From assembly GCF_013315695.1 (NCBI RefSeq), contig NZ_CP054353.1: a DNA stretch of 64,000 nt, one strand, 5' to 3'. Under the pieces are notes generated by a model. That model was given only the letters and a program-made list of their open reading frames with translations, was not told the DNA's origin and ran no database searches. This document shows, piece after piece, positions 2,977 to 25,623 of this stretch (the stretch's first letter is position 1; the number at the start of each line of letters is the position of its first letter). A program made the position numbers and the translations under genes. Source of the stretch: Escherichia coli (lineage in GTDB: Bacteria > Pseudomonadota > Gammaproteobacteria > Enterobacterales > Enterobacteriaceae).

Positions 2977-3252
2977 GTGGCTTCTGTTTCTATCAGCTGT
3001 CCCTCCTGTTCAGCTACTGACGGGGTGGTGCGTAACGGCAAAAGCACCGCCGGACATCAGCGCTATCTCTGCTCTCACTGCCGTAAAACATGGCAACTGC
3101 AGTTCACTTACACCGCTTCTCAACCCGGTACGCACCAGAAAATCATTGATATGGCCATGAATGGCGTTGGATGCCGGGCAACAGCCCGCATTATGGGCGT
3201 TGGCCTCAACACGATTTTACGTCACTTAAAAAACTCAGGCCGCAGTCGGTAA
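2977..3252 (+). CDS. insA: IS1 InsA
   Basis: 91-aa product [39 protein letters not shown]... Confidence 0.95.
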
Positions 3253-3674
3253 CCTCGCGCATACAGCCGGGCAGTGACGTCATCGTCTGCGCGGAAATGG
3301 ACGAACAGTGGGGCTATGTCGGGGCTAAATCGCGCCAGCGCTGGCTGTTTTACGCGTATGACAGGCTCCGGAAGACGGTTGTTGCGCACGTATTCGGTGA
3401 ACGCACTATGGCGACGCTGGGGCGTCTTATGAGCCTGCTGTCACCCTTTGACGTGGTGATATGGATGACGGATGGCTGGCCGCTGTATGAATCCCGCCTG
3501 AAGGGAAAGCTGCACGTAATCAGCAAGCGATATACGCAGCGAATTGAGCGGCATAACCTGAATCTGAGGCAGCACCTGGCACGGCTGGGACGGAAGTCGC
3601 TGTCGTTCTCAAAATCGGTGGAGCTGCATGACAAAGTCATCGGGCATTATCTGAACATAAAACACTATCAATAA
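3171..3674 (+). CDS. insB: IS1 InsB frame (expressed as InsAB' by -1 frameshifting)
   Basis: 167-aa frame overlapping the insA 3' end; sequence typical of IS1 transposase. Confidence 0.9.
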
Positions 3675-3888: not shown

Positions 3889-4356
3889 TTATTTCAGGCA
3901 CTGAGTACGGATATATTCCTGCGCCCCTTCCAGTTGCTTCTGCATCGTCATCAGCCGCTCTCTGAGGGTGAAATAATCCCGTGTAACGGTGTCTGCCAGT
4001 TGGGGGCCGGTTGCATTATCCACGCGGGCGGTGCCGGTGGCTTCACGCACGGGACCTGGACAGGTGGCGTTGATACGCAGGCGCTTACGACCAGCGGCAA
4101 CGTCAGCGCGAAGAGTTTCATTTTCAGCTTTCGCATCAGCTAACTCCTTCGTGTATTTTGCATCGAGCGCAGCAACATCACGCTGACGCATCTGCATGTC
4201 AGTAATTGCCGCGTTCGCCAGCTTCAGTTCTCTGACATTTTTGTCGCGCTGGGCTTTGTAGGTAATGGCGTTATCACGGTAATGATTCAGCCCCAGACTA
4301 AGCGCACCACAGGCCACCAGCAGGGCAATGATGACCACGCACAGTACGCGGTTCAT
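3889..4356 (-). CDS. Rz i-spanin
   Basis: 155-aa product with N-terminal TM segment ([16 protein letters not shown]) and coiled-coil-like periplasmic part; contains an embedded Rz1 frame. Confidence 0.85.
3951..4136 (-). CDS. Rz1 o-spanin lipoprotein, embedded in Rz in another frame
   Basis: 61-aa frame with signal peptide plus lipobox-like LVVSAC and a proline-rich mature part. Confidence 0.7.
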
Positions 4357-4654: not shown

Positions 4655-5188
4655 TTATCTGTCGATTCCCCAGCACGCCAGCGCGCTCTCCTGGTCACGA
4701 CGGGATACCTGACCATAACAGTTGTTTGAGCGGATACGGCAGTCTCTGCCACCGTCCTTAATCCACCAGCGAATCGCCTCACACGCTCCCCTGCGATCAC
4801 CTGCATTAATTCGTTTATAAAACGTCGACGGGAAACACTTACCGGGACCAATGTTGTACGGACAGAATGACGCGATCCCCGCTTTCTGGGGTTCACTCAA
4901 TGGCACTCTGATGTTTTTCTCCACCCATGCCAGCGCCTCATCACGCTCAATGGCGTTAACCCGGTCGCATTTTTCCTTCGACAACTTCATGCCCGGAACG
5001 ACAGGTTTGCCATCCACCAGGATGGCACCGCGGCAGATGGTCCAGATACCCGCACCATCACGGTATGCCGTGGTGTGGTTACCTTCCTTTTCATCCAGAA
5101 ACTGGTCGAGAATGTCAGGCGCAGGCGCACCAGCGGCAATCAGCGCCAGAACGGCAGCCGACAGGCCGTATCTGATTTTTGCGTTCAT
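4655..5188 (-). CDS. SAR endolysin (phage lysozyme, T4-lysozyme family)
   Basis: 177-aa product; N-terminal weakly hydrophobic signal-anchor-release segment (YGLSAAVLALIAAGAPAP) followed by a lysozyme-like domain. Confidence 0.85.
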   Translation of the reverse strand: MNAKIRYGLSAAVLALIAAGAPAPDILDQFLDEKEGNHTTAYRDGAGIWTICRGAILVDGKPVVPGMKLSKEKCDRVNAIERDEALAWVEKNIRVPLSEPQKAGIASFCPYNIGPGKCFPSTFYKRINAGDRRGACEAIRWWIKDGGRDCRIRSNNCYGQVSRRDQESALACWGIDR

Positions 5189-5293: not shown

Positions 5294-5566
5294 ATGGACA
5301 ATAACACCATTTCTCTACAGGAGTTGCTCGACAGCATTTCCAGGCTTCGGGAAGACGTGAATACCCTTACCGTCGCCTTCTCATATCTGGCATTCTCAAT
5401 TCCAAGGGAACAGATGCAATCAACGCTGGCATCAATCCAGTTTGAATCATGCAATCCCAAATGGTCTCAGGAACAACAAGACTCTTTCAGGCGGCTTGCT
5501 GTATTACTGGATGAAAAATATGCTGGTAAAATTACCATTTCGGCGGACTCTTCAGAGAACCCGTAA
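5294..5566 (+). CDS. hypothetical protein (90 aa), opposite strand to the lysis genes
   Basis: ATG with GAGGA 6 nt upstream; no recognised domain; 3' end overlaps the convergent 114-aa ORF by 35 bp. Confidence 0.4.
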   Translation: MDNNTISLQELLDSISRLREDVNTLTVAFSYLAFSIPREQMQSTLASIQFESCNPKWSQEQQDSFRRLAVLLDEKYAGKITISADSSENP

Positions 5567-5876
5567 TTATTCCCGGTAGTTTTCCTCTGTAGGTTATCAA
5601 CACATCCTGCGCCTCTAAAATTACGGGGCGCTTTTCCGGCGACTGCTCATCCCCTTCACATAACCCGGCAGCAACATCCAGGAAGACCTGTCTGATGCTC
5701 CTTCTGGCTGCTGCCTCATAAAACTCCAGCGCGGCACCTTCAACACGGTCCAGCGAGATGTCCAGGTCAAAAATTTCACCGTCAAAGCGTTTTTTGTCCC
5801 GTAACGCTAAAGTTACCGTAACTTTATTCTCAAAATTGCGGATCCCTTTCACAATCAGTTCATAGTTTTGAGTCAT
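5532..5876 (-). CDS. hypothetical protein (114 aa) immediately downstream of the holin
   Basis: ATG 4 nt after the holin stop with GGGGAGAG as SD; soluble-looking product MTQNYELIVKGIRNFENKV...; no recognised domain. Confidence 0.55.
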   Translation of the reverse strand: MTQNYELIVKGIRNFENKVTVTLALRDKKRFDGEIFDLDISLDRVEGAALEFYEAAARRSIRQVFLDVAAGLCEGDEQSPEKRPVILEAQDVLITYRGKLPGIITGSLKSPPKW

Positions 5877-5880
5877 TGAA

Positions 5881-6096
5881 TTACTCTCCCCGTGCAGCCT
5901 TACGACGGTCCTCTCTGATTTTGAAATACAGGTTAGTCAGATATGTCAGCAGCCCAAACAGCAGACTCCCCAGCACGCCTATTGCCGCCCACTGAGACGG
6001 GGAAACCCTGTCCAGCAACTGCAGGAACCAGTAGCCCGTTCCCACCGCTGACGTGGTGTATGACACACCTGTTGTGATTTTTTCCATCTGGTACAT
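5881..6096 (-). CDS. class II pinholin, phage-21 S-like, dual start (71-aa and 68-aa forms)
   Basis: [13 protein letters not shown]... with two in-frame Met codons 3 codons apart (starts at 6096 and 6087); two TM segments; C-terminus ...[14 protein letters not shown]; ORF-track ORF extends to 6174. Confidence 0.8.
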
Positions 6097-6246: not shown

Positions 6247-8100
6247 TTATGATGATGCCGGTGCATTTATCTCCAGCACCAGACTTTCTATCTCAACGCC
6301 ATACGCTGCATTTTTGGTAATATCCGTCAGCGTCAGCGCATTCAGCCCCAGTGTCAGACTGTCTTTTATGACCTGGAATGCCGGGCCAGCCACTCCATTC
6401 AGTTTCGGAGTAACCGTGGCACTGCCGGCGGTGAACACCAGCTCCAGCGTCTGCCAGTCGTTACTGTAATTCCCGAACTCGCCCAACTTTGTGTTTCCTG
6501 CTTTCTTGTGATGCATCAGATTCAGTTTGCCGTCTGTGGTCTGGGTGAAGAACGACATCAGGAACGGGTTACCAGTCCCGGTCATCGCCACGACGTCAGG
6601 TAACGCTACATCGGTATACAGATAAATTCCCAGACCGAACTGGTTGTTGGTCAGTGCGCCTGACAGTCGAAACTTACAGCTCAGTCTGCCACCCCGTGTC
6701 AGCAGGGAGACTGCGTCATCCACCGGGCGCGTCAGGGACCAGGCTTTATTGCTCTGCTTGGTGATCTTAAATACACCATCTGACAACTGAATTCCGCCAT
6801 TCTTAATGCTCCAGCCCTGCGCAGCAGCGTCTCCGGCTGTCGGCAACAGGGAGATTGTGCGTATGGATGCATCTTCAGACGGCCCCGATGGCGTGTCGCC
6901 GCCGGGCGAGGGTTTGATTTCCGGTGCCTTACCACTAATGAAGGCTAAGGTGCGACCGGCTACGTTCAGAATAGCAGTTGCCATACGATCGGGAATAATG
7001 CCACGACGCGCCCATGAGCTGAAATGCGTCGGGCGATTTGATGATACCCAGTTTTTGTTCGTTCGGGATGCCGAACCGTAATAACCAGACCCGGCAATAT
7101 CAGGATCTTCTGACGGGTTGTTTGTCGGTGTATTAACTCCGCTACCATCGGTCATAAAGGGAACAAAATAAATCTGCTGGGATTCTTTACCTTTATATGC
7201 ACCATATACCACTTCATATTGCGTACCGTGTTCTTGTTTCCACGCGTATGTCGTGTCGCCACAAATCCAGGGGACTGATGCCGGACTTCCACCGTGACAC
7301 TGCGCCGCCAGCCCGGCAAGGTCAGCACGGAACTGCTGTACCATTGCAAGAAATGCTGCTGGCTGCTGGGCGTAACTGGCATTCGTCATATCGAATTCCC
7401 CCTGCATCCAGCATATCGCCAGCAAAACGTTTTTCGGGTTTTTCTGCAATGCTGCCTTCGTGCGGAAAAGCAGATCCTGATATAACGGCTTACCCACTCC
7501 CCAGCGAGCCGAATCCTGACTGGCTCCCGTGGACTCGCTGAATGTCCCCTCCGTGCCCTGGGTGAATGCCGAACCACCACGACAGCATGGTACCAGCAGG
7601 ATCCCCGCATTATTAGGGATATACGGAAGCAGTTTTTTGGCAATATGTAAGCCCTGTCCGACACAGCCGTACTGCCCTTTGCTCAGGTCAGCCCGGGGAT
7701 GGTTAATCGTACTCATATCCTGAACATCATGCAGACAATGGTCAGCAGGAATGATGTCGTTAAATACGCATACTTCACCACCGGGAGTCACTGTGTTACG
7801 ACGGGCCAGTTGCTTAATGCGCGGATGGGGCGCATCGTATGAATCCGGAAGCGGAAGCCCTTCACCGTAAGCCATGGCATTGGATTGCCCGGCCAGTACG
7901 ATGACGTAGTACCACTCCGGCTCAGTTGCACCACTGACGACCACATCACCTTCTGCTGCAATCGCCTGCATCAGGGTATAAGGGGTTATGGCCACCGGAC
8001 TACCAAACGGCTGCCAGCCCTCCTTCAGTTTTTGTGTCAGTCGTTTCGCAAGGTCTGACGGCGATGCCGCCCTGACCACGTCATAGTGTTTAAATGCCAT
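6247..8100 (-). CDS. prophage sialate O-acetylesterase-like SGNH hydrolase (NanS-p-like)
   Basis: 617-aa product; LAGQSNAMAYGEG block typical of SASA/SGNH esterases; GGGAGGA SD 5 nt upstream; position between tRNA genes and holin as in Stx-type lambdoid phages. Confidence 0.65.
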   Translation of the reverse strand: MAFKHYDVVRAASPSDLAKRLTQKLKEGWQPFGSPVAITPYTLMQAIAAEGDVVVSGATEPEWYYVIVLAGQSNAMAYGEGLPLPDSYDAPHPRIKQLARRNTVTPGGEVCVFNDIIPADHCLHDVQDMSTINHPRADLSKGQYGCVGQGLHIAKKLLPYIPNNAGILLVPCCRGGSAFTQGTEGTFSESTGASQDSARWGVGKPLYQDLLFRTKAALQKNPKNVLLAICWMQGEFDMTNASYAQQPAAFLAMVQQFRADLAGLAAQCHGGSPASVPWICGDTTYAWKQEHGTQYEVVYGAYKGKESQQIYFVPFMTDGSGVNTPTNNPSEDPDIAGSGYYGSASRTNKNWVSSNRPTHFSSWARRGIIPDRMATAILNVAGRTLAFISGKAPEIKPSPGGDTPSGPSEDASIRTISLLPTAGDAAAQGWSIKNGGIQLSDGVFKITKQSNKAWSLTRPVDDAVSLLTRGGRLSCKFRLSGALTNNQFGLGIYLYTDVALPDVVAMTGTGNPFLMSFFTQTTDGKLNLMHHKKAGNTKLGEFGNYSNDWQTLELVFTAGSATVTPKLNGVAGPAFQVIKDSLTLGLNALTLTDITKNAAYGVEIESLVLEINAPASS

Positions 8101-8325: not shown

Positions 8326-8562
8326 CATAAGAAAGCCCCTCCGGAGAGGGGCTAAAGCCGCGTATCTGTATCATCATGCACATGGTGCCGGGTGCCTCCC
8401 GGTGAGTTCAGCCCGGTGCCACTAAACCCGCGTCATTCTCGTTTTGATAATCAGAGATTATACCGTCACCAGTCGCCCCTCCGCTCAGGGGGATTCACCA
8501 TGCGAAATTTTTTTAACAAATGCCCAGTCTGACAGGCAACTGTCAACTTACTGAATTGTGAG
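8326..8562. repeat. direct repeat copy A (about 237 bp) in the late operon
   Basis: Shares with copy B the blocks AAAGCCCCTCCGGAGAGGGGCT, CATGGTGCCGGGTGCCTCCCGGTGA, GCCCCTCCGC-CAGGGGGATTCACCATGC, TTTTAACAAA and CTGAATTGTGAG. Confidence 0.6.
8335..8352 (-). terminator. hairpin GCCCCTC-CGGA-GAGGGGC with downstream U-rich tract on the minus strand (repeat A)
   Basis: Perfect 7-bp GC stem; in minus orientation followed by TTTCTT. Confidence 0.45.
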
Positions 8563-8812
8563 CAACATAGCATTTAACGGGGAACCTGTTTTCTGCAGTA
8601 AAAAGGCCCACCGGAGCGGATGGGCCTGGAAGGATAGCGGTCATGTGATGCCGGTTTCCCGGTAACTCAGCACCGGTATCTGAGTCAACGTTTTCTCTAC
8701 TGGGTCATTTCCGATACGCCCTGCCTGCTGACAGGCTTTCATCACATCTGAAAATATAGCACCCTGACTGATACTGTAGTACCTAAGGTTCCAGAAACTG
8801 TGATGTATCCGG

Positions 8813-9038
8813 CACAGAAAAGCCCCTCCGGAGAGGGGCTGGAGAGTGGCGCTATGTGCCATTGCATGGTGCCGGGTGCCTCCCGGTGAATTCAGTACCA
8901 GCACCTGAATCCGCGATTATCCCATATACCTACTCGCTGATTGCCCCTCCGCACAGGGGGATTCACCATGCCAGTTTCTTTTAACAAACTCCCCGCAAAC
9001 CAGACAACAGTCAACCGCCTGAATTGTGAGACATTTAA
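8813..9038. repeat. direct repeat copy B
   Basis: Imperfect copy of repeat A about 480 bp away. Confidence 0.6.
8822..8839 (-). terminator. hairpin GCCCCTC-CGGA-GAGGGGC with downstream U-rich tract on the minus strand (repeat B)
   Basis: Same hairpin as copy A; in minus orientation followed by TTTTCT. Confidence 0.45.
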
Positions 9039-9074: not shown

Positions 9075-9151
9075 TGGCGCGTTGTACTGGATTCGAACCA
9101 GTGACCGATTGCTTAGAAGGCAATTGCTCTGTCCGGCTGAGCTAACAACGC
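9075..9151 (-). tRNA. tRNA-Arg (anticodon UCU)
   Basis: Manual fold of the reverse complement: acceptor GCGTTGT/ACAACGC, D-arm GCTC/GAGC, anticodon stem ATTGC/GCAAT with loop CTTCTAA, T-arm ACTGG-TTCGAAT-CCAGT, discriminator G, CCA encoded. Confidence 0.8.
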
Positions 9152-9164
9152 AGGATACAGATAA

Positions 9165-9241
9165 TGGACCGCCTTCGGGGACCCGAACTCCGCGCAACCA
9201 GCTTCGAAAGCTGGCGCTCTTTCCTGATGAGCTAATGGCGG
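9165..9241 (-). tRNA. tRNA-like gene, Arg-type (anticodon UCG by manual fold), possibly degenerate
   Basis: D-arm TAGCTCATCAGGAAAGAGC, anticodon stem CCAGC/GCTGG with loop TTTCGAA, CCA encoded; one mismatch in the acceptor stem and one in the T stem; T-loop TTCGGGT is non-consensus. Confidence 0.5.
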
Positions 9242-9248
9242 TATGTGA

Positions 9249-9324
9249 TGGTGGCCCTTGCTGGATTTGAACCAGCGACCTGGCGATTATGAGTCGCTCG
9301 CTCTCACCACTGAGCTAAAGGGCC
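9249..9324 (-). tRNA. tRNA with CAU anticodon, ileX-like (tRNA-Ile2/lysidine type; could be Met)
   Basis: Acceptor GGCCCTT/AAGGGCC perfect, anticodon loop CTCATAA, T-arm GCTGG-TTCAAAT-CCAGC, discriminator A, CCA encoded; closely resembles E. coli ileX from memory. Confidence 0.8.
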
Positions 9325-9373: not shown

Positions 9374-10423
9374 TCAAACGATTAAATCCTGAACTTCCCT
9401 GACTGTCTGCTCAAAACGTCCGGTCTCCAGTTCAACGCCAATCGCACGACGCCCAAGCGCCAGTGCCGCTTTTACCGTTGAACCTGAGCCCATAAAAAAA
9501 TCTGCAACCAGGTCACCCGGACGACTGCTTGCGCTGATTATCTGCTGCAGCATTTCTGCCGGTTTTTCGCACGGATGTTTCCCGGGATAGAACTGCACCG
9601 GTTTATGTGTCCACACATCCGTGTACGGCACCTGCGCCGTCACACCAAAATACCGCCGCAGATGCTTATATTCACTCTGCAGCTCCACATACTGCCGGTT
9701 CAGTGACGTATACGTATCCACCAGCTGGTGGTGGGGCTTTTCCAGTTCACCGCGCTGATGTTTCTCTTCTGCCACCCGGGCAAACAGCGACTGTAATTTC
9801 AGATAATCGCTTTCGTTCGGTAGCTGCCACTGACTGGCACTGAACCAGTGCGACACCATGTTTTTCTTTCCTGTGGCATCTGCAATCTGTTTTGCCGTTA
9901 TCCCCAGGGCAGCGCGCGCATCACGAAAGTAAGAAATCAGCGGGGCCATCACATGCTGTTTCAGTGCACTGCCCTTCGCCGCATACCCGGCATCTTTCGG
10001 ACGATACGGCCCCTGATAATGTTCCGCGAACAGAATGCGCTCTGTGGCGGGGAAATACGCCCGCAGGCTTTCCTTGTTGCATCCGTTCCAGCGTCCGGAC
10101 GGCTTCGCCCAGATAATATGGTTCAGCACACTGAAGCGTTCACGCATCATGATTTCGATATCAGATGCCAGGCGATGACCACAGAACAGGTAAAGACTTC
10201 CGACAGGTTTCAGCACCCGCCAGAACTGCGCCAGACACTGGTCCAGCCACTTCAGGTAATCATCGTCGCCCTTCCACTGGTTATCCCAGCCCTCAGGCTT
10301 CACTTTAAAGTACGGCGGGTCCGTGACTATCAGGTCAACAGAATTTTCGGGTAACGACCGGATAAATTCCAGGCAGTCGGCGTTGATTAACTCACAACTG
10401 GATATTTTTACAGTATTAAGCAT
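9374..10423 (-). CDS. orphan DNA methyltransferase (beta-class N6-adenine/N4-cytosine type)
   Basis: 349-aa product with catalytic DPPY motif near the N-terminus (LIVTDPPYF) and AdoMet motif FFMGSGST near the C-terminus; no adjacent restriction endonuclease gene. Confidence 0.8.
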   Translation of the reverse strand: MLNTVKISSCELINADCLEFIRSLPENSVDLIVTDPPYFKVKPEGWDNQWKGDDDYLKWLDQCLAQFWRVLKPVGSLYLFCGHRLASDIEIMMRERFSVLNHIIWAKPSGRWNGCNKESLRAYFPATERILFAEHYQGPYRPKDAGYAAKGSALKQHVMAPLISYFRDARAALGITAKQIADATGKKNMVSHWFSASQWQLPNESDYLKLQSLFARVAEEKHQRGELEKPHHQLVDTYTSLNRQYVELQSEYKHLRRYFGVTAQVPYTDVWTHKPVQFYPGKHPCEKPAEMLQQIISASSRPGDLVADFFMGSGSTVKAALALGRRAIGVELETGRFEQTVREVQDLIV

Positions 10424-10561
10424 GGATCATTAAGCCTGTCTCTGATAGGCTCATTCTGCTTTTGCGCAAAGCAGTGGGCCTGAGGTTTGCTTGTGAACCC
10501 AACGCATGAGCAGATGGCTGGTGGGTGCCCCTAACACCCACCAGCCGCCCATTTACCACAA

Positions 10562-10587
10562 ATAAAAAAGCCTTCAGGACTGAAGGC
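10562..10587 (-). terminator. intrinsic terminator after the 65-aa ORF
   Basis: Minus-strand hairpin GCCTTCAG-TC-CTGAAGGC followed by TTTTTTATTT; stem overlaps the last codons of the upstream ORF. Confidence 0.55.
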
Positions 10588-10771
10588 GTCTGTAACAACC
10601 GAACTGATAGTCTGCCAGACCCGCCATAACCAGCTGGGTCAGTATTAACTGGCAGCGTTCGCGTGAAAGGTAAGTATTCTGCGCTATCTCCCCGACTGTC
10701 GCCGGTTCGGTAACGCTTAATTCATTAAACACCACTCTGGCGGTTTCTGTCATATCCTGCTGTTTTAGCAT
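10574..10771 (-). CDS. small winged-helix-like protein (65 aa)
   Basis: ATG at 10771 preceded by AAGGAAAAAG; product MLKQQDMTETARVVFNELSVTEPATVGEIAQNTYLSRERCQLILTQLVMAGLADY...; ORF-track ORF extends to 10858. Confidence 0.45.
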   Translation of the reverse strand: MLKQQDMTETARVVFNELSVTEPATVGEIAQNTYLSRERCQLILTQLVMAGLADYQFGCYRRLQS

Positions 10772-10902
10772 GTCTTTTTCCTTTTTCCGGTTAACGTGAC
10801 ATACCAATAACTCTTGTCGAAAAAGCCAGCAAGCTGAAAGACCCGTATTCGCAACCACCAGCGTGTTTACTGTACTGACGCGATTTTGGGCATAAAAAAA
10901 AA

Positions 10903-10925
10903 CCGCCTGACGGCAGTTTTTTTTC
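10903..10925 (-). terminator. bidirectional intrinsic terminator just downstream of Q (tR'-like)
   Basis: Short GC hairpin CUGCC-GUCA-GGCGG flanked by A8 and T9 runs. Confidence 0.5.
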
Positions 10926-10929
10926 TTAC

Positions 10930-10985: not shown

Positions 10986-11675
10986 TTAATTGACTTTTGC
11001 AATATCTCGTCGTGAAAAAGTCGCTTTTTGTTGCGCTCTTATTTTCACGGTGCAAATCACAGATTCTCTATCGAGACTCTTAAAAATATCGCACATCTCA
11101 CGCCAGTAGTTCGCATAATTATGGCTCCAGTTATCAGGCTTAACTCCACACAGTCTGGCAAGCTCCTGTCTCTGGTAGACCTCACACCCGGTAATCCATC
11201 CTCTGACATCCTGTGCCGCCAGCCAGATCAACTTCTTCACGCGCTCCTGCGTTTTCCCTGCAATTTTTCTGGTGCCGTACCGGGTTTTAAATTCATTCCA
11301 CACCCACTGCGTTATCGCGATCTGATATTCCCAACAAATACTCCCGCTGTAACACCACAACAACCAGGCTTTATGATGTTCTTCAAGAGACAGAACAGCC
11401 CGCCGCCACGATGATGTCGAAAACTCAACCGGACTGACGAGAGGAATTGACACCCCCTTCGCCAGCGATTGCTTTCCCGGGATTGGTGGATTATCCCGCG
11501 TTATCATTTTTCCAGTCACTTCATCGCGGTACCGGATTTTTTTACGCCTGTAACGCCCTGTATCAAACATGGCATTCTCCTGCCAGGCCTCAAGCTGCCC
11601 TTTTGTTGATCCACTCAAATCGGCGGTGGCAATCATGAGTTGCTCACGAACAAACTGTAAATACTGGTTATTCAT
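10986..11675 (-). CDS. putative late-gene antiterminator Q
   Basis: 229-aa ORF in the canonical position (after rusA, before the terminator-rich late operon); Cys-rich central region; the family assignment is by position and my recall only. Confidence 0.55.
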   Translation of the reverse strand: MNNQYLQFVREQLMIATADLSGSTKGQLEAWQENAMFDTGRYRRKKIRYRDEVTGKMITRDNPPIPGKQSLAKGVSIPLVSPVEFSTSSWRRAVLSLEEHHKAWLLWCYSGSICWEYQIAITQWVWNEFKTRYGTRKIAGKTQERVKKLIWLAAQDVRGWITGCEVYQRQELARLCGVKPDNWSHNYANYWREMCDIFKSLDRESVICTVKIRAQQKATFSRRDIAKVN

Positions 11676-12037
11676 GCGTACTCCAGTTCTGTGATTTTTA
11701 TCCCCAACCGCCCACCAGGAACAAGCTGACCGCGCACAATATTAATTTCATCAAACTGCTCGTCGTCTATGAGCAGCCCCGCATGCGTCAGTACATCCAG
11801 TGGTGCCTTCAGGATATTGTCCAGGTCACGACGGCGCTTATCCGGTGGCTCTGCAATAATTTCTATTGCCGGCCTTCCGGACAGGTTTAATTTCAGTTGC
11901 TGCTGGCGAACAATAAGCGCCACATCACGGCGATAACGCTCACCGACTTTTGATACAAAATATGTGCTGCCACGACGTCGCCAGTAAGTGTTCACCGTTG
12001 GCGGGTAAGGCAAAACAAATTCTATGCGTTCAGTCAT
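11672..12037 (-). CDS. rusA: RusA-type Holliday junction resolvase
   Basis: 121-aa product MTERIEFVLPYPPTVNTYWRRRG...DKRRRDLDNILKAPLDVLTHAGLLIDDEQ... matches the RusA pattern. Confidence 0.8.
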   Translation of the reverse strand: MTERIEFVLPYPPTVNTYWRRRGSTYFVSKVGERYRRDVALIVRQQQLKLNLSGRPAIEIIAEPPDKRRRDLDNILKAPLDVLTHAGLLIDDEQFDEINIVRGQLVPGGRLGIKITELEYA

Positions 12038-13093
12038 TTATGCTTTCCACTTCAGAACACCCGAATTTCTCGCGTGCATTAAAAAACGAATCAGCAACAA
12101 CAGCTGGCTGCCGTGTTTTTCTTCAAAATCTTTTACCCCGGCGTGTAGTTCGCTATGGCATTTACGGCACAGCGGAATAACAAACAAATCATCAGCCTTT
12201 GTTCCCATCCCTCCCAGTCCATGACCAATGATGTGATGCGGATCATCTGCCTGATTGCCACACGTCATGCATTTCTGCGTTTTTACCCAACGCGTGTATA
12301 CAGGCATCTCTTCCCGTTGTGATTTCTGGCGCTGGAGATACTGAGCCGGTGACTCCGGATCAACGGCAATGCTGACCACCGTCTTTTCCTGTGGCGGGTT
12401 TTGCTGGTGGGCGTGAGGCAGCGGCGCAAGATTTTTTGTGCGCTGCTTCAGTATGCTGGTGGCGGTCTGCTCTCCCGGTACGATGTCGCTTTCACGGTAC
12501 ATTGAGCGGATTTTTTCCGCACGCAACCCCAGCGAACGACGTAATACCGCTTCCGGTAGCGCGTCCGCCACCTGATTGCGGACCGCCCACCAGGATAATT
12601 CAGCCAGCGATAATTCCCGTTCCTGCGAGCCATTCATTGCATGGCGTATGACGTCAATCATCCATGCAGACAGGTTTTGGTGAGCAAGTTGCCCGAGTGA
12701 TTCGGAGGTCTGGTCGCGCAGCTGGTTGTCGCAGTGCCAGCACAACACCATTGCGCCGGTACCATAACGGTGAATGACGGTTTCACTGTGGTGATAATCG
12801 CCGTGTGGCCACTGGCAGGATTTAACATGGCGCAGTAACCAGTCAGACAATGCGCCAGCGCCACCAGCAGCACGAATCACTCGTTCGTCGCTGAAAAATG
12901 GCAGTAATGATTTATCCTCCGCCAGCGGCTGGCGAACGGCAGGAACGACCCCGGACGGCAGATTACGCATGCTTTTCGGTTCCGGCTCCACCAGTACCCG
13001 GGTATTGTGGAATACCGGCATGGATTCACGGCCCGGCTTAACGATCACCAGCCCGAGTTCCGGTACCAGAACAGGTCGAAGTAATACCCGCAC
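12038..13093 (-). CDS. DUF968-type phage protein (YdfU-like) with C-terminal HNH/zinc-finger-like motif
   Basis: 351-aa product; C-terminal CMTCGNQADDPHHIIGHG...CRKCHSELH motif. Confidence 0.6.
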   Translation of the reverse strand: MRVLLRPVLVPELGLVIVKPGRESMPVFHNTRVLVEPEPKSMRNLPSGVVPAVRQPLAEDKSLLPFFSDERVIRAAGGAGALSDWLLRHVKSCQWPHGDYHHSETVIHRYGTGAMVLCWHCDNQLRDQTSESLGQLAHQNLSAWMIDVIRHAMNGSQERELSLAELSWWAVRNQVADALPEAVLRRSLGLRAEKIRSMYRESDIVPGEQTATSILKQRTKNLAPLPHAHQQNPPQEKTVVSIAVDPESPAQYLQRQKSQREEMPVYTRWVKTQKCMTCGNQADDPHHIIGHGLGGMGTKADDLFVIPLCRKCHSELHAGVKDFEEKHGSQLLLLIRFLMHARNSGVLKWKA

Positions 13094-13094
13094 G

Positions 13095-13367
13095 TTACCT
13101 CCAGATGCGTTGCTGGAATGTGCGGGACGGACGCGGTGGGCGTTCAGAGTAAGGAAGCCTGACGGAGATTATCCAGTGACGATAATCGAGGCTGAGGGCT
13201 TTCTTAATCTCGTATCCGCGTCTGCGGTAGTTATGAATTAGCCATTCGGCCTGTTCTTCAGTACATGGTGGGTGTTGGTACCAGTCGGTTTTAAATGCGT
13301 GTGAACGCCGCCCATGCCGGATGGCAAGGTCGGTATCAGAATTGTGAAATTTGGTTTTGTGCGCCAT
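13095..13367 (-). CDS. hypothetical phage protein (90 aa), position of Qin rem
   Basis: ORF between hok and the DUF968 gene; no recognised domain. Confidence 0.4.
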   Translation of the reverse strand: MAHKTKFHNSDTDLAIRHGRRSHAFKTDWYQHPPCTEEQAEWLIHNYRRRGYEIKKALSLDYRHWIISVRLPYSERPPRPSRTFQQRIWR

Positions 13368-13432
13368 CTGTTTTCTCTGCTGGCGCAGCAGGTGTCAGGT
13401 GTTCAGGCTGACGTGCGAATTGTAAACCAGAA

Positions 13433-13466
13433 TGCCAGAAAAAAACAAAACCCGCCGAAGCGGGTT
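13433..13466 (-). terminator. intrinsic terminator downstream of hok
   Basis: Minus-strand hairpin AACCCGC-UUCG-GCGGGUU followed by a U-rich tract. Confidence 0.6.
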
Positions 13467-13534
13467 AAGTGCGGGTGCGTTGAGGATGCCTGACACATCA
13501 GAGGTGGCGAGGGATTTCTCCCCCGCCAGGTCTC

Positions 13535-13690
13535 TTACTCCTCAGGTTCGTAAGCTGTGAAGACAGCGACCTCCGTCTGGCCGGTTCGGAGTCGTACCTC
13601 GCAGAGGTCTTTCCTCGTTACCAGTGCCGTCACTATGACGGTTAAACAGATGACGATCAGGGCGATTAACATCGCCTTTTGCTGCTTCAT
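13535..13690 (-). CDS. hok: Hok/Gef-family type I toxin (HokD-like)
   Basis: 51-aa product MKQQKAMLIALIVICLTVIVTALVTRKDLCEVRLRTGQTEVAVFTAYEPEE; the ORF-track ORF carries a 19-codon in-frame upstream extension. Confidence 0.85.
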   Translation of the reverse strand: MKQQKAMLIALIVICLTVIVTALVTRKDLCEVRLRTGQTEVAVFTAYEPEE

Positions 13691-13927
13691 AGCCTGCTTC
13701 CCCTTGCCTTTCGGCACGTAAGAGGCTAACCTACATTTGTGAGACATAGATTGGGCCTCAGATTAATGTTAAGCGTCTTGCAGGACGCGAAATGTTAACT
13801 GGGGCTTTTCTCTATCTGCCTTTCAGTGTTCATGCCTGAGACAGATAGCCTCAAGCACCCGCAGCCATTCTACTTAACTCACGTCACCTCGCCAATATGA
13901 AATCAATCAGAAAGGTGATCCATAAAA

Positions 13928-14614
13928 TCACTCCTTCTCTTCTTTTCCGTAGTGGAGTTGGCCAATTTTGATAAGAGGGCGTCCCTGAGATTTGCGGTGT
14001 AGATTGGTATCGCGCAGAGAATACACACAGCCACAATATTCCTGCTGATAGAATTTTTCGCGCTTGCTGATTTCAATCATACGGGACGAGCCGCCCTGCT
14101 TGCGCCAGTTATAATCCCAGTACACCATACCCGGATAATGCGCAACAGCTCGCCGCCCACACTCGTTAACCTGCTGCATATTTTTCCAGCGTGAAATGCC
14201 CAGTGAACTGCTGATCACACTGAAACCATTTTCAGCAGCGTACAACGCTGTCCGCTCAAAACGCATGTCAAAACACATGGTACAACGGATCCCCCTCTCA
14301 GGCTCCCATTCCATTCCTTTGGCACGTTCAAACCAGTTGTCGGTGTCGTAATCAGCATCGATAAACGGCACGCCGTGTTGTTCAGCAAAGCGAATATTTT
14401 CATCCTTACGAATTAAATACTCTTTCTGAGGATGAATGTTCGGGTTGTAGAAAAAGATGGTGTAGTCGATTCCCGAGGCCTGAAGCGCCTCCATCACTTC
14501 ACCGGAACATGGAGCACAGCAAGAGTGCAGTAGTAGTTTGTTTGCCCCGTTTGGGAGCTCCAATTTAGGCCGTTTGAAATCAGCAATAGTCATAAATATT
14601 TTTATTGGGGTCAT
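13928..14614 (-). CDS. QueH-like (DUF208) epoxyqueuosine reductase homologue
   Basis: 228-aa product with N-terminal [11 protein letters not shown] motif and further Cys motifs (CTMCF, YCGCVY) characteristic of the QueH/DUF208 family; true start may be the Met 7 codons downstream. Confidence 0.6.
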
Positions 14615-23593: not shown

Positions 23594-23842
23594 ATGGCAA
23601 GACTTATTCTGCTCACTGAGTGGGCAAAAGAGGAATTCAGTGAACCGGTCCCTACTCCGAGTACGTTAAGTAAATACGCTAAAGCCGGAATGATATTTCC
23701 TCTCCCCAAAAAAGTTGGAAGACGCTGGCGAGTGGATCCGCAAGCTCGCTTTGTCGGAATGGTAAACAAGCCGGAGGTGATCGCCACAGATCACCCTGCT
23801 TTGAAGAGGATACTGGAAGATGGCGCGCCCGCGAAAATATAA
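23594..23842 (+). CDS. xis: excisionase (Xis-like)
   Basis: 82-aa ORF immediately upstream of and overlapping the integrase gene; contains ...GMIFPLPKKVGRRWRVDP... Confidence 0.6.
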   Translation: MARLILLTEWAKEEFSEPVPTPSTLSKYAKAGMIFPLPKKVGRRWRVDPQARFVGMVNKPEVIATDHPALKRILEDGAPAKI

Positions 23843-24950
23843 AACCGATGTTCCGGGATTATCTCCGTATTTTGACAAAAGAAATAACAAAGTTTACTGG
23901 CGTTACAGGCATCCCATAACAGGCAAAAATCACGGTCTCGGCAGTATTGACCAGAAACTGGCAGAAACTATTGCAGCAGAAGCGAACAGCCGTCTTGCCC
24001 GGCAGCAAATGGAACAAATGCTCAGTCTGCAGGAGAAAATTATTAGTGATACCGGCGGTTCATCAACCGTTACCATTTTTCTGAATAATTACAGAAAAAT
24101 TCAACAGGAAAGATATGAAAACGGCGAGATCAAACTCAACACGCTGAAACAGAAAGCAGCTCCTCTCAGGGTATTTGATGAACGTTTTGGCACCAGACCG
24201 TTAGATGCCATAACCGTAAAAGATGTGGTATCAGTACTGGAAGAGTACAAGGCCAGAGGACATAACAGAATGGGACAAATTTTCAGGAAAGTACTGATCG
24301 ATGTTTTCCGGGAAGCTCAGCAAACGGGCGATGTCCCGCCAGGCTTTAACCCTGCAGAATCGGCAAAAAAACCGCAGGTGCGGATATCAAGACAGCGACT
24401 GACTTTTGATGAGTGGATGATGATTTATAACGCAGCGGAAAAGGATGGTTACTTTTTACAGCGCGGTATGCTGCTGGCACTGATGACAGGCCAGCGCCTT
24501 TCAGATATTTGCAAAATGCAATTTTCGGATATCCGGGATGGTTATCTTCATGTCGAACAGCAAAAAACAGGAACCCGGATTGCCATCCCTCTGGCTCTGC
24601 GTTGCGATAAATTAAATCTCACCCTGGATGATGTGGTGTCATCCTGCCGCGATTGCGTTCTTAGTCCGTGGCTATTGCACCACCATCACGCGAAAGGGAC
24701 AGCTAAGCGCGGCGGGATGGTTAAGCCAGCAACATTAACCGTTGCATTTAAAAAAGCCCGGGATTCTGTGGATTACAACTGGCGTGCTAATGGCACCCCT
24801 CCCTCTTTCCATGAGCAGAGATCTTTATCAGAGCGATTGTTCAGAGAGCAGGGGGTTGATACCAAAATTTTGCTAGGCCATTCGAATCAAAAAATGACCG
24901 ATATTTACAACGACGCACGCGGTAAGGAATGGAAAAAACTGGTCATTTGA
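23820..24950 (+). CDS. int: tyrosine site-specific integrase (lambda Int family)
   Basis: 376-aa product; C-terminal catalytic-domain pattern (...RLSDICKMQFSDI...HEQRSLSERLF...LLGHSNQKMTDIY...) consistent with a tyrosine recombinase. Confidence 0.9.
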   Translation: MARPRKYKTDVPGLSPYFDKRNNKVYWRYRHPITGKNHGLGSIDQKLAETIAAEANSRLARQQMEQMLSLQEKIISDTGGSSTVTIFLNNYRKIQQERYENGEIKLNTLKQKAAPLRVFDERFGTRPLDAITVKDVVSVLEEYKARGHNRMGQIFRKVLIDVFREAQQTGDVPPGFNPAESAKKPQVRISRQRLTFDEWMMIYNAAEKDGYFLQRGMLLALMTGQRLSDICKMQFSDIRDGYLHVEQQKTGTRIAIPLALRCDKLNLTLDDVVSSCRDCVLSPWLLHHHHAKGTAKRGGMVKPATLTVAFKKARDSVDYNWRANGTPPSFHEQRSLSERLFREQGVDTKILLGHSNQKMTDIYNDARGKEWKKLVI

Positions 24951-24984: not shown

Positions 24985-25623
24985 TTAAAAACGATATCCT
25001 GCGGAGAACATAAACACCCACGGATCCAGTCGTACCGAGTCTTTTACGGTAGTAACACCAGATTTGTACTTAGCCGTGGTATCGATATCCATGTACCACA
25101 CTGACATGTTAACCAACCAGTCACGGTTAATCAGATAATCAACCCCCACCTGCCCGGCAGCTCCCCAGGAATCTTTCAGACTGAGATCGGAAAGCCCCGC
25201 CTCTTTGCCATGATCGTTAAATCCATTATCAAAGAAGGTGGTGTAGTTAATACCTGCCCCAACGTAAGGACGGAATTTGCTGCTGGCATCACCAAAATAC
25301 CACTGCGCCATCAGTGTTGGCGGCAGATGATGAACGGTTGCAATATCGCCGGTCGCCCGGGTGCCGATTTTATGGCGGAACGGCGTCGCAGCCAGTAATT
25401 CCACACCAATGTTGTCGGTCGCCATATAAGTAAACGTCAGGCCCAGTTGCGTGTTATTGGTCACGCTGAATCCACCCAGACTTCCTAACGTACCACCAGC
25501 ACCTTCTGTTGGACGTACGGTTGCAGACCCTGCACGCATAAAAAATTCGCCTGCTTCATGCGCATAGGCACTGCCAGAGAGAAGAGTTGTTACTGCCAAA
25601 GCCGCCACTGTTAACTTTTTCAT
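24985..25623 (-). CDS. ompW: outer membrane protein W
   Basis: 212-aa product MKKLTVAALAVTTLLSGSAYA... ending ...FSAGYRF; ORF-track ORF extends upstream to 25701. Confidence 0.95.
   Translation of the reverse strand: MKKLTVAALAVTTLLSGSAYAHEAGEFFMRAGSATVRPTEGAGGTLGSLGGFSVTNNTQLGLTFTYMATDNIGVELLAATPFRHKIGTRATGDIATVHHLPPTLMAQWYFGDASSKFRPYVGAGINYTTFFDNGFNDHGKEAGLSDLSLKDSWGAAGQVGVDYLINRDWLVNMSVWYMDIDTTAKYKSGVTTVKDSVRLDPWVFMFSAGYRF

Follow-up and report, generated by a model that had tools for sequence, protein, structure and literature searches.

The window, a 64,000-nucleotide stretch of Escherichia coli DNA (contig NZ_CP054353.1), carries a methyltransferase gene whose product is, very probably, the sequence-non-specific N6-adenine methyltransferase M.EcoGI, encoded by a lambdoid prophage at ompW as one of its late genes, expressed by Q-mediated read-through and serving in anti-restriction. 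The methyltransferase is already known, and its family has been characterised and is sold commercially. Below we describe the protein, its identity with the published enzyme and the late region in which its gene lies, before weighing other explanations for its presence.

The open reading frame (9374..10423, minus strand) begins with an ATG start codon and encodes a protein of 349 aa (WP_000935536.1). Residues 29–340 match the Pfam family PF01555 (N6_N4_Mtase) with E=2.7e-44 and 152.2 bits against a Pfam cut-off of 26.7, which is well past chance level. From the sequence and alignments, the catalytic motif IV DPPY occupies residues 35–38 (10310..10321, minus strand) and is identical in M.EcoGII and M.EcoMV, while the S-adenosylmethionine-binding motif I, FMGSG (FxGxG), occupies residues 310–314 (9482..9496, minus strand). 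Because DPPY is N-terminal of FxGxG and the recognition domain is central, the methyltransferase has the beta-class order. This motif order, together with the Pfam match, confirms by sequence the assignment to the beta-class DNA methyltransferases that had been made in an earlier note on this DNA. The best sequence matches with a solved structure are all DNA methyltransferases, namely M.RsrI, CcrM, M.MboIIA, DpnA and N4-cytosine enzymes. Scores against the NCBIfam equivalogs for YhdJ and CcrM (NF008572 and NF050803) stayed below their cut-offs (111.9 versus 292 and 71 versus 830), and as far as sequence goes the window methyltransferase and YhdJ/CcrM are separate families with related folds.

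The recognition domain (9713..9946, minus strand) was delimited from an AlphaFold model of M.EcoGII, which shows it as a four-helix bundle containing a helix-turn-helix (PMC11551740). Just three of its residues differ from M.EcoGII in the alignment (S164A, S191P and D236S). M.EcoGII elutes as a dimer, and residues 97–110 and 116–140, which form its reported dimer interface (PMC11551740), are identical in the window protein, which is probably a homodimer as well. The methyltransferase family is under purifying selection, with a dN/dS of 0.10–0.15.

The identification with M.EcoGI rests on comparisons with three published relatives. The window protein and the methyltransferase encoded in the ompW prophage of the outbreak strain E. 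coli O104:H4 2011C-3493 (locus L013, 25892-26941) are identical at 349/349 residues. The accession WP_000935536.1 is the RefSeq accession in this prophage as well as in strains CE10 and MSB1_4I, whose methyltransferase genes are 100% identical to the window gene. By triangulation, we infer that this O104:H4 copy corresponds to M.EcoGI in REBASE. M.EcoGII aligns with the window protein without gaps and with 333/349 identical residues, which is also the published distance between M.EcoGI and M.EcoGII and so supports equating the window protein with M.EcoGI. M.EcoMV of strain EC958 shares 346/349 residues with the window protein and 332/349 with M.EcoGII, and M.EcoMV, encoded on the EC958 prophage Phi4, has been described as 99% identical to M.EcoGI (Forde et al., PMC4659465). 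These three agreeing identity measurements indicate that the window protein is M.EcoGI in sequence.

The M.EcoGII reference was taken from Table S1 of PMC11551740, whose noisy machine-read text gave 330/350 against the window protein when left uncorrected. Three corrections were applied and 8 candidate sequences built, one of which exactly matched a protein among those of O104:H4 (P0016 in our set). The accessions and UniRef name of this protein lead to O104:H4 2011C-3493 and C227-11, and it is encoded in the O104:H4 genome HF572917.2. A full-text literature search with three peptides of the methyltransferase matched no paper.

M.EcoGII, a beta-class enzyme of 349 aa that methylates adenine in any context, comes from a prophage of strain C227-11 of E. 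coli O104:H4 (Murray et al., PMC5778455). Both M.EcoGI and M.EcoGII are reported to act without sequence specificity, methylating any adenine (PMC5778455, PMC4659465). The recognition of M.EcoGI has been published as nonspecific, REBASE-based tables likewise give M.EcoGI and M.EcoGII as nonspecific, and M.EcoGI is the less thoroughly characterised of the two. In vivo, M.EcoGII methylates more than 85% of A, and in vitro roughly 99%; the resulting methylation blocks 12 six-cutter and 6 four-cutter restriction enzymes. Its substrates also include single-stranded DNA and, in vitro, RNA and RNA:DNA hybrids, with RNA methylated more weakly: the initial rate is 0.12 on RNA versus 11.12 on DNA, or about 100-fold lower (Table S3, PMC11551740). 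Carried over from these identical and near-identical proteins, the reported any-context adenine methylation would be the activity of the window enzyme too. The earlier note had called the recognition site unknown, a statement that no longer holds given that the protein is identical to the O104:H4 enzyme and that the family is reported to be non-specific (PMC5778455, PMC4659465). Databases name the protein 'site-specific DNA-methyltransferase', an annotation that is corrected here, as the identical protein has been reported to be non-specific.

The gene is widespread. About one third of complete E. coli genomes possess it (1965/5426, at 2789 places and with up to 6 copies per genome), and the exact protein is found on at least 1000 contigs. 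It is also present in 38 phage records, nearly all of them Stx2-converting phages, along with phiP27 and 1720a-02.

The first 25 kb of the window are 99.9% identical to E. coli MSB1_4I, and the annotation described here was transferred from the MSB1_4I locus (L003), a window position being the locus position minus 12000. The stretch opens with the chromosomal genes trpB and trpA (to 1438) and yciG and yciF (1819-2584), followed by a yciE pseudogene (2630-2922) and an IS1A element (2977..3674, plus strand). Pfam matches and the transferred annotation then give a run of minus-strand genes encoding an Rz-type lysis protein (3889-4356), a lysozyme (4655-5188), YdfR (5532-5876), a holin (5881-6096) and a SASA/NanS-p-type esterase (6247-8100). 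On the other side of the methyltransferase and Q lie RusA, DUF968/HNH, a 90-aa hypothetical ORF, hokD and QueH (11672-14593), replication and immunity genes (14768 onward), xis (23594-23842) and int (23820-24950), with ompW beginning at 24996. The hokD toxin gene (13535-13690, minus strand) sits in the early region of the prophage, as does the gene for the homologue of QueH, an epoxyqueuosine reductase (13928-14593, minus strand), a curious presence in a tRNA-carrying phage.

The element (1-24980) is a lambdoid prophage at ompW that survives as an IS1-truncated remnant. Terminase, head and tail genes are all absent, and IS1A, at the truncation point, joins the yciE pseudogene to the Rz gene; in CE10 and O104:H4, whose related prophages are intact, the position of this break is occupied by terminase, head and tail genes. 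The IS1A junction was found in only one complete genome of the collection (MSB1_4I), and 23 others match only from 3690 or 3702 onward (82–85% of the query). The virion genes were lost through an IS1-associated deletion, which makes the methyltransferase an intact but stranded copy.

The methyltransferase gene belongs to a cassette in which all elements lie on one strand, in the order Q, a terminator (T1), a 65-aa ORF, a second terminator (T2), a leader, the methyltransferase, three tRNAs, an empty stx slot, the esterase and the lysis genes. A position in the late region between Q and the lysis genes is common to the window, CE10, MSB1_4I, EC958, O104:H4 and Stx phages. phiP27, 1720a-02 and the Stx2a phages carry this cassette in the interval from Q to stx, and it is present in the M.EcoGII locus too; in the Stx phages the tRNAs and stx follow it immediately. 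The stx genes are transcribed from pR' under Q control. The antiterminator Q itself is full length in the window (229 aa; 10986..11675, minus strand), matching PF06323 over profile positions 1–217/220 with E=1.4e-83 and phrog_304. This intact Q, followed on the same strand by the tRNAs, the esterase and the lysis genes, bears out the earlier placement of the gene in a prophage-borne late transcription unit downstream of Q.

Scanning for intrinsic terminators located T1 (10893..10929, minus strand), a tR'-like element about 70 nt 3' of the Q stop codon whose fold has a free energy of −19.3 kcal/mol (z=−5.9), and T2 (10560..10587, minus strand) at the end of the 65-aa ORF. T2 consists of a 7-bp GC-rich stem, GCCTTCAG/CTGAAGGC, followed by the T run TTTTTTATTT, and its stem is maintained in the M.EcoGII locus by two both-sided changes. 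We aligned the late leader from 7 loci with differing Q types, namely the window, EC958, 1720a-02, phiP27, two Stx2a phages and the M.EcoGII locus. The sequence 5' of T1 varies with Q type across these loci, and the T1 hairpin is kept from differing stem sequences. Rfam matches at T1 to isrK and Phe_leader were far under threshold. With only about 70 nt between the Q stop codon and T1, any transcript from pR' that stopped at T1 would be very short, comparable to the 6S RNA of lambda or the StxS sRNA of Stx phages. A consensus promoter scan did not pinpoint the late promoter pR' and returned no promoter-like sequence on the coding strand from Q to the methyltransferase.

Between T2 and the methyltransferase start codon, folding and alignment define a structured leader of 137 nt (10424..10560, minus strand) with a minimum free energy of −58.3 kcal/mol (z=−3.46). 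The leader is conserved across the 7 loci, and its 14-bp hairpin varies solely via G.U wobble pairs, a pattern that points to selection on the sense-strand RNA. In the consensus fold, the start-codon region is paired with an upstream segment, and the leader may act as a translational lock on a toxic enzyme. An Rfam scan of the leader gave no match above threshold.

The 65-aa ORF (10574..10771, minus strand) matches phrog_331 with E=1e-37. Its top Pfam match is TrmB (E=0.0024, under the cut-off), all of its winged-helix matches fall below their cut-offs, and its counterpart in phiP27 is annotated as a TrmB-family regulator in RefSeq. In E. coli, the ORF was counted at 4247 places in 2269 genomes, compared with 2789 places in 1965 genomes for the methyltransferase. 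It was considered as a C-protein-like controller and rejected, as about one third of its copies lack the methyltransferase and its helix-turn-helix scores are below cut-off. Rather than being tied to the methyltransferase as its partner, the 65-aa ORF is a gene of late leaders in general.

Directly 3' of the methyltransferase are three tRNA genes (9075..9324, minus strand), identified by ARAGORN, Rfam and the RefSeq annotation of the identical locus. The CAU-anticodon tRNA comes first (9249-9324, minus strand), followed by tRNA-Arg(UCG) and tRNA-Arg(UCU). ARAGORN calls the first of these Met(CAT), whereas RefSeq labels the identical gene tRNA-Ile; under the RefSeq label it would be of the ileZ type, in which lysidine modification makes the CAU anticodon decode Ile. 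Between the tRNAs and the esterase, in the exact stxAB slot of Stx phages, are two full-length copies of the STnc100 sRNA (RF02076; 8323-8532 and 8810-9000, minus strand), scoring 165 and 136 bits where the gathering score is 47. A weak third copy lies at 8598-8771 (minus strand), and an 88-nt direct repeat (8475-8562 / 8943-9030) reflects the STnc100 duplication.

We propose that, in the lysogen, transcripts arriving from the Q side would stop at T1 and T2, and the enzyme would not be made. Such silence would avoid a genome-wide methylation that slows growth. The two terminators of the window and the null result of the promoter scan are consistent with silence in the lysogen. In published work, constitutive expression of the enzyme slowed growth, the methylation signature of M.EcoGI or M.EcoGII was absent from native C227-11, and RT-PCR for the M.EcoMV transcript in EC958 was negative (PMC4659465). 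Upon induction, Q would render RNA polymerase resistant to terminators, allowing read-through from the 65-aa ORF and the methyltransferase to the tRNAs, the esterase and the lysis genes. The methyltransferase, which is probably a homodimer, would then methylate adenines in any context on replicating phage DNA, and in the next host the progeny DNA would withstand the numerous restriction enzymes, of Types I, II and III, that m6A blocks.

We infer both the Q dependence and the anti-restriction role in nature, and the latter is an assumption of the published authors as well. For the family as a whole, the literature searched contained no paper demonstrating expression from the Q-dependent late transcript or a native role on induction, and no report of hypermethylated virion DNA that evades restriction or of a plating defect of a methyltransferase mutant. 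Since the remnant is unable to package DNA, the proposed benefit cannot operate in the window prophage itself. The protection of phage DNA suggested in the earlier note stands as a role assumed in the literature and fails for this IS1-truncated copy, which has no packaged phage DNA to protect. Overall, what that note had observed is confirmed, and its interpretation is partly supported.

Several other explanations are compatible with some of these data. The database name and a target-recognition region of normal size would fit a sequence-specific orphan methyltransferase with its own recognition site, but we consider this very improbable: the O104:H4 enzyme, to which the protein is identical, and M.EcoGII, with which it shares 95% identity, have both been reported to be non-specific, and the protein's recognition domain departs from that of M.EcoGII at only 3 residues. 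It is extremely unlikely that the methyltransferase is the modification half of a restriction-modification or defence system partnered by RusA or the DUF968/HNH protein (12038-13093). The DUF968 protein does have an HNH-like motif (PF16784, E=3.9e-07; PHROG 96 'HNH endonuclease') and is encoded about 1.6 kb upstream of the methyltransferase. However, neither it nor RusA matches a PADLOC restriction or defence model, phiP27 has the methyltransferase without DUF968, and the host would be exposed to an active partner nuclease as long as the methyltransferase is silent in the lysogen. Both RusA and DUF968 belong to the usual nin-region repertoire of lambdoid phages. The adjacent endonuclease of a Type II restriction-modification system was not found among the neighbours, which are the 65-aa ORF, Q, RusA, DUF968, the tRNAs and the esterase, and 0/9 neighbouring proteins match a restriction or defence model in PADLOC, in agreement with the earlier description of the gene as an orphan.

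RNA, in the form of the co-transcribed tRNAs or late mRNAs, could also be the main natural substrate, given that single-stranded RNA and RNA:DNA hybrids are substrates of M.EcoGII in vitro and that three tRNA genes follow immediately 3' in the same transcript. The roughly 100-fold lower in vitro rate on RNA than on DNA (PMC11551740) and the nearest solved structures, all of DNA methyltransferases, make this very unlikely. Finally, the gene could be kept in remnants for a benefit to the host if, after DNA damage, Q-driven genome-wide m6A aided RecA-mediated repair or hindered superinfecting phages by marking or disabling their DNA or RNA. The conserved structured leader and double terminator would then be a safety lock on a toxic enzyme. 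In keeping with such a benefit, this copy has stayed intact within a prophage that IS1 has truncated, purifying selection acts on the family, and plasmid-borne EcoGII raised homologous recombination and improved survival of genotoxic agents about 100-fold (PMC12403123). Yet the holin, lysozyme and Rz genes lie on the same transcript, so that a fully induced cell should die; the truncation is found in only one matching genome and may simply be recent; and the purifying selection is explained by the many intact carrier phages. We regard a host benefit as very unlikely, and a non-specific methyltransferase that is made late from the Q-dependent transcript and protects phage DNA from restriction is the explanation we prefer.

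Comparison with known systems places the window copy close to its O104:H4 and ST131 relatives. The M.EcoGI prophage of O104:H4 C227-11 / 2011C-3493 shares the ompW attachment site and the same kinds and order of genes from Q to lysozyme. Unlike the window element, which is cut by IS1 after Rz, it has kept its terminase, head and tail genes and is complete, and it encodes a different antiterminator protein. M.EcoMV (EC958_1545, ST131 prophage Phi4) likewise lies at the ompW/trp site, with the 65-aa ORF upstream and tRNAs downstream, but differs by 3 substitutions, by two tRNAs where the window has three, by a different antiterminator gene and by its complete prophage. M.EcoGII (GenBank EGT69837.1) has identical DPPY and FMGSG motifs and likewise sits between Q and the esterase and lysis genes. 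However, it carries 16 substitutions relative to the window protein, mostly in linker helices (residues 236–254), and belongs to a different prophage with a Q of type PF06530 and two reverse ORFs inserted after Q.

More distant parallels are found among other orphan enzymes of mobile elements. The Dam-like phage orphans, such as the PF05869 genes that these same phages carry, are also phage-borne N6-adenine methyltransferases that are assumed to act in anti-restriction; in contrast to the window enzyme, they are of the alpha class, with the opposite motif order, are specific for GATC and lie in the early nin region. No Dam-like PF05869 gene was found in the window prophage remnant. M.EcoGIX and M.BceJIII are orphan low-specificity methyltransferases as well, but they are larger, are encoded in the leading region of plasmids and act on single-stranded DNA (SAY) in conjugation (PMC7736820), an unrelated context.

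The segment from Q to the late leader is a variable insertion site among the loci compared. In phiP27 it holds a GIY-YIG nuclease gene (L006, 5605-6834), and in the Stx2a_1447 and M.EcoGII prophages it holds two reverse-oriented ORFs (L008, 5634-7197, and L009, 3920-5381).
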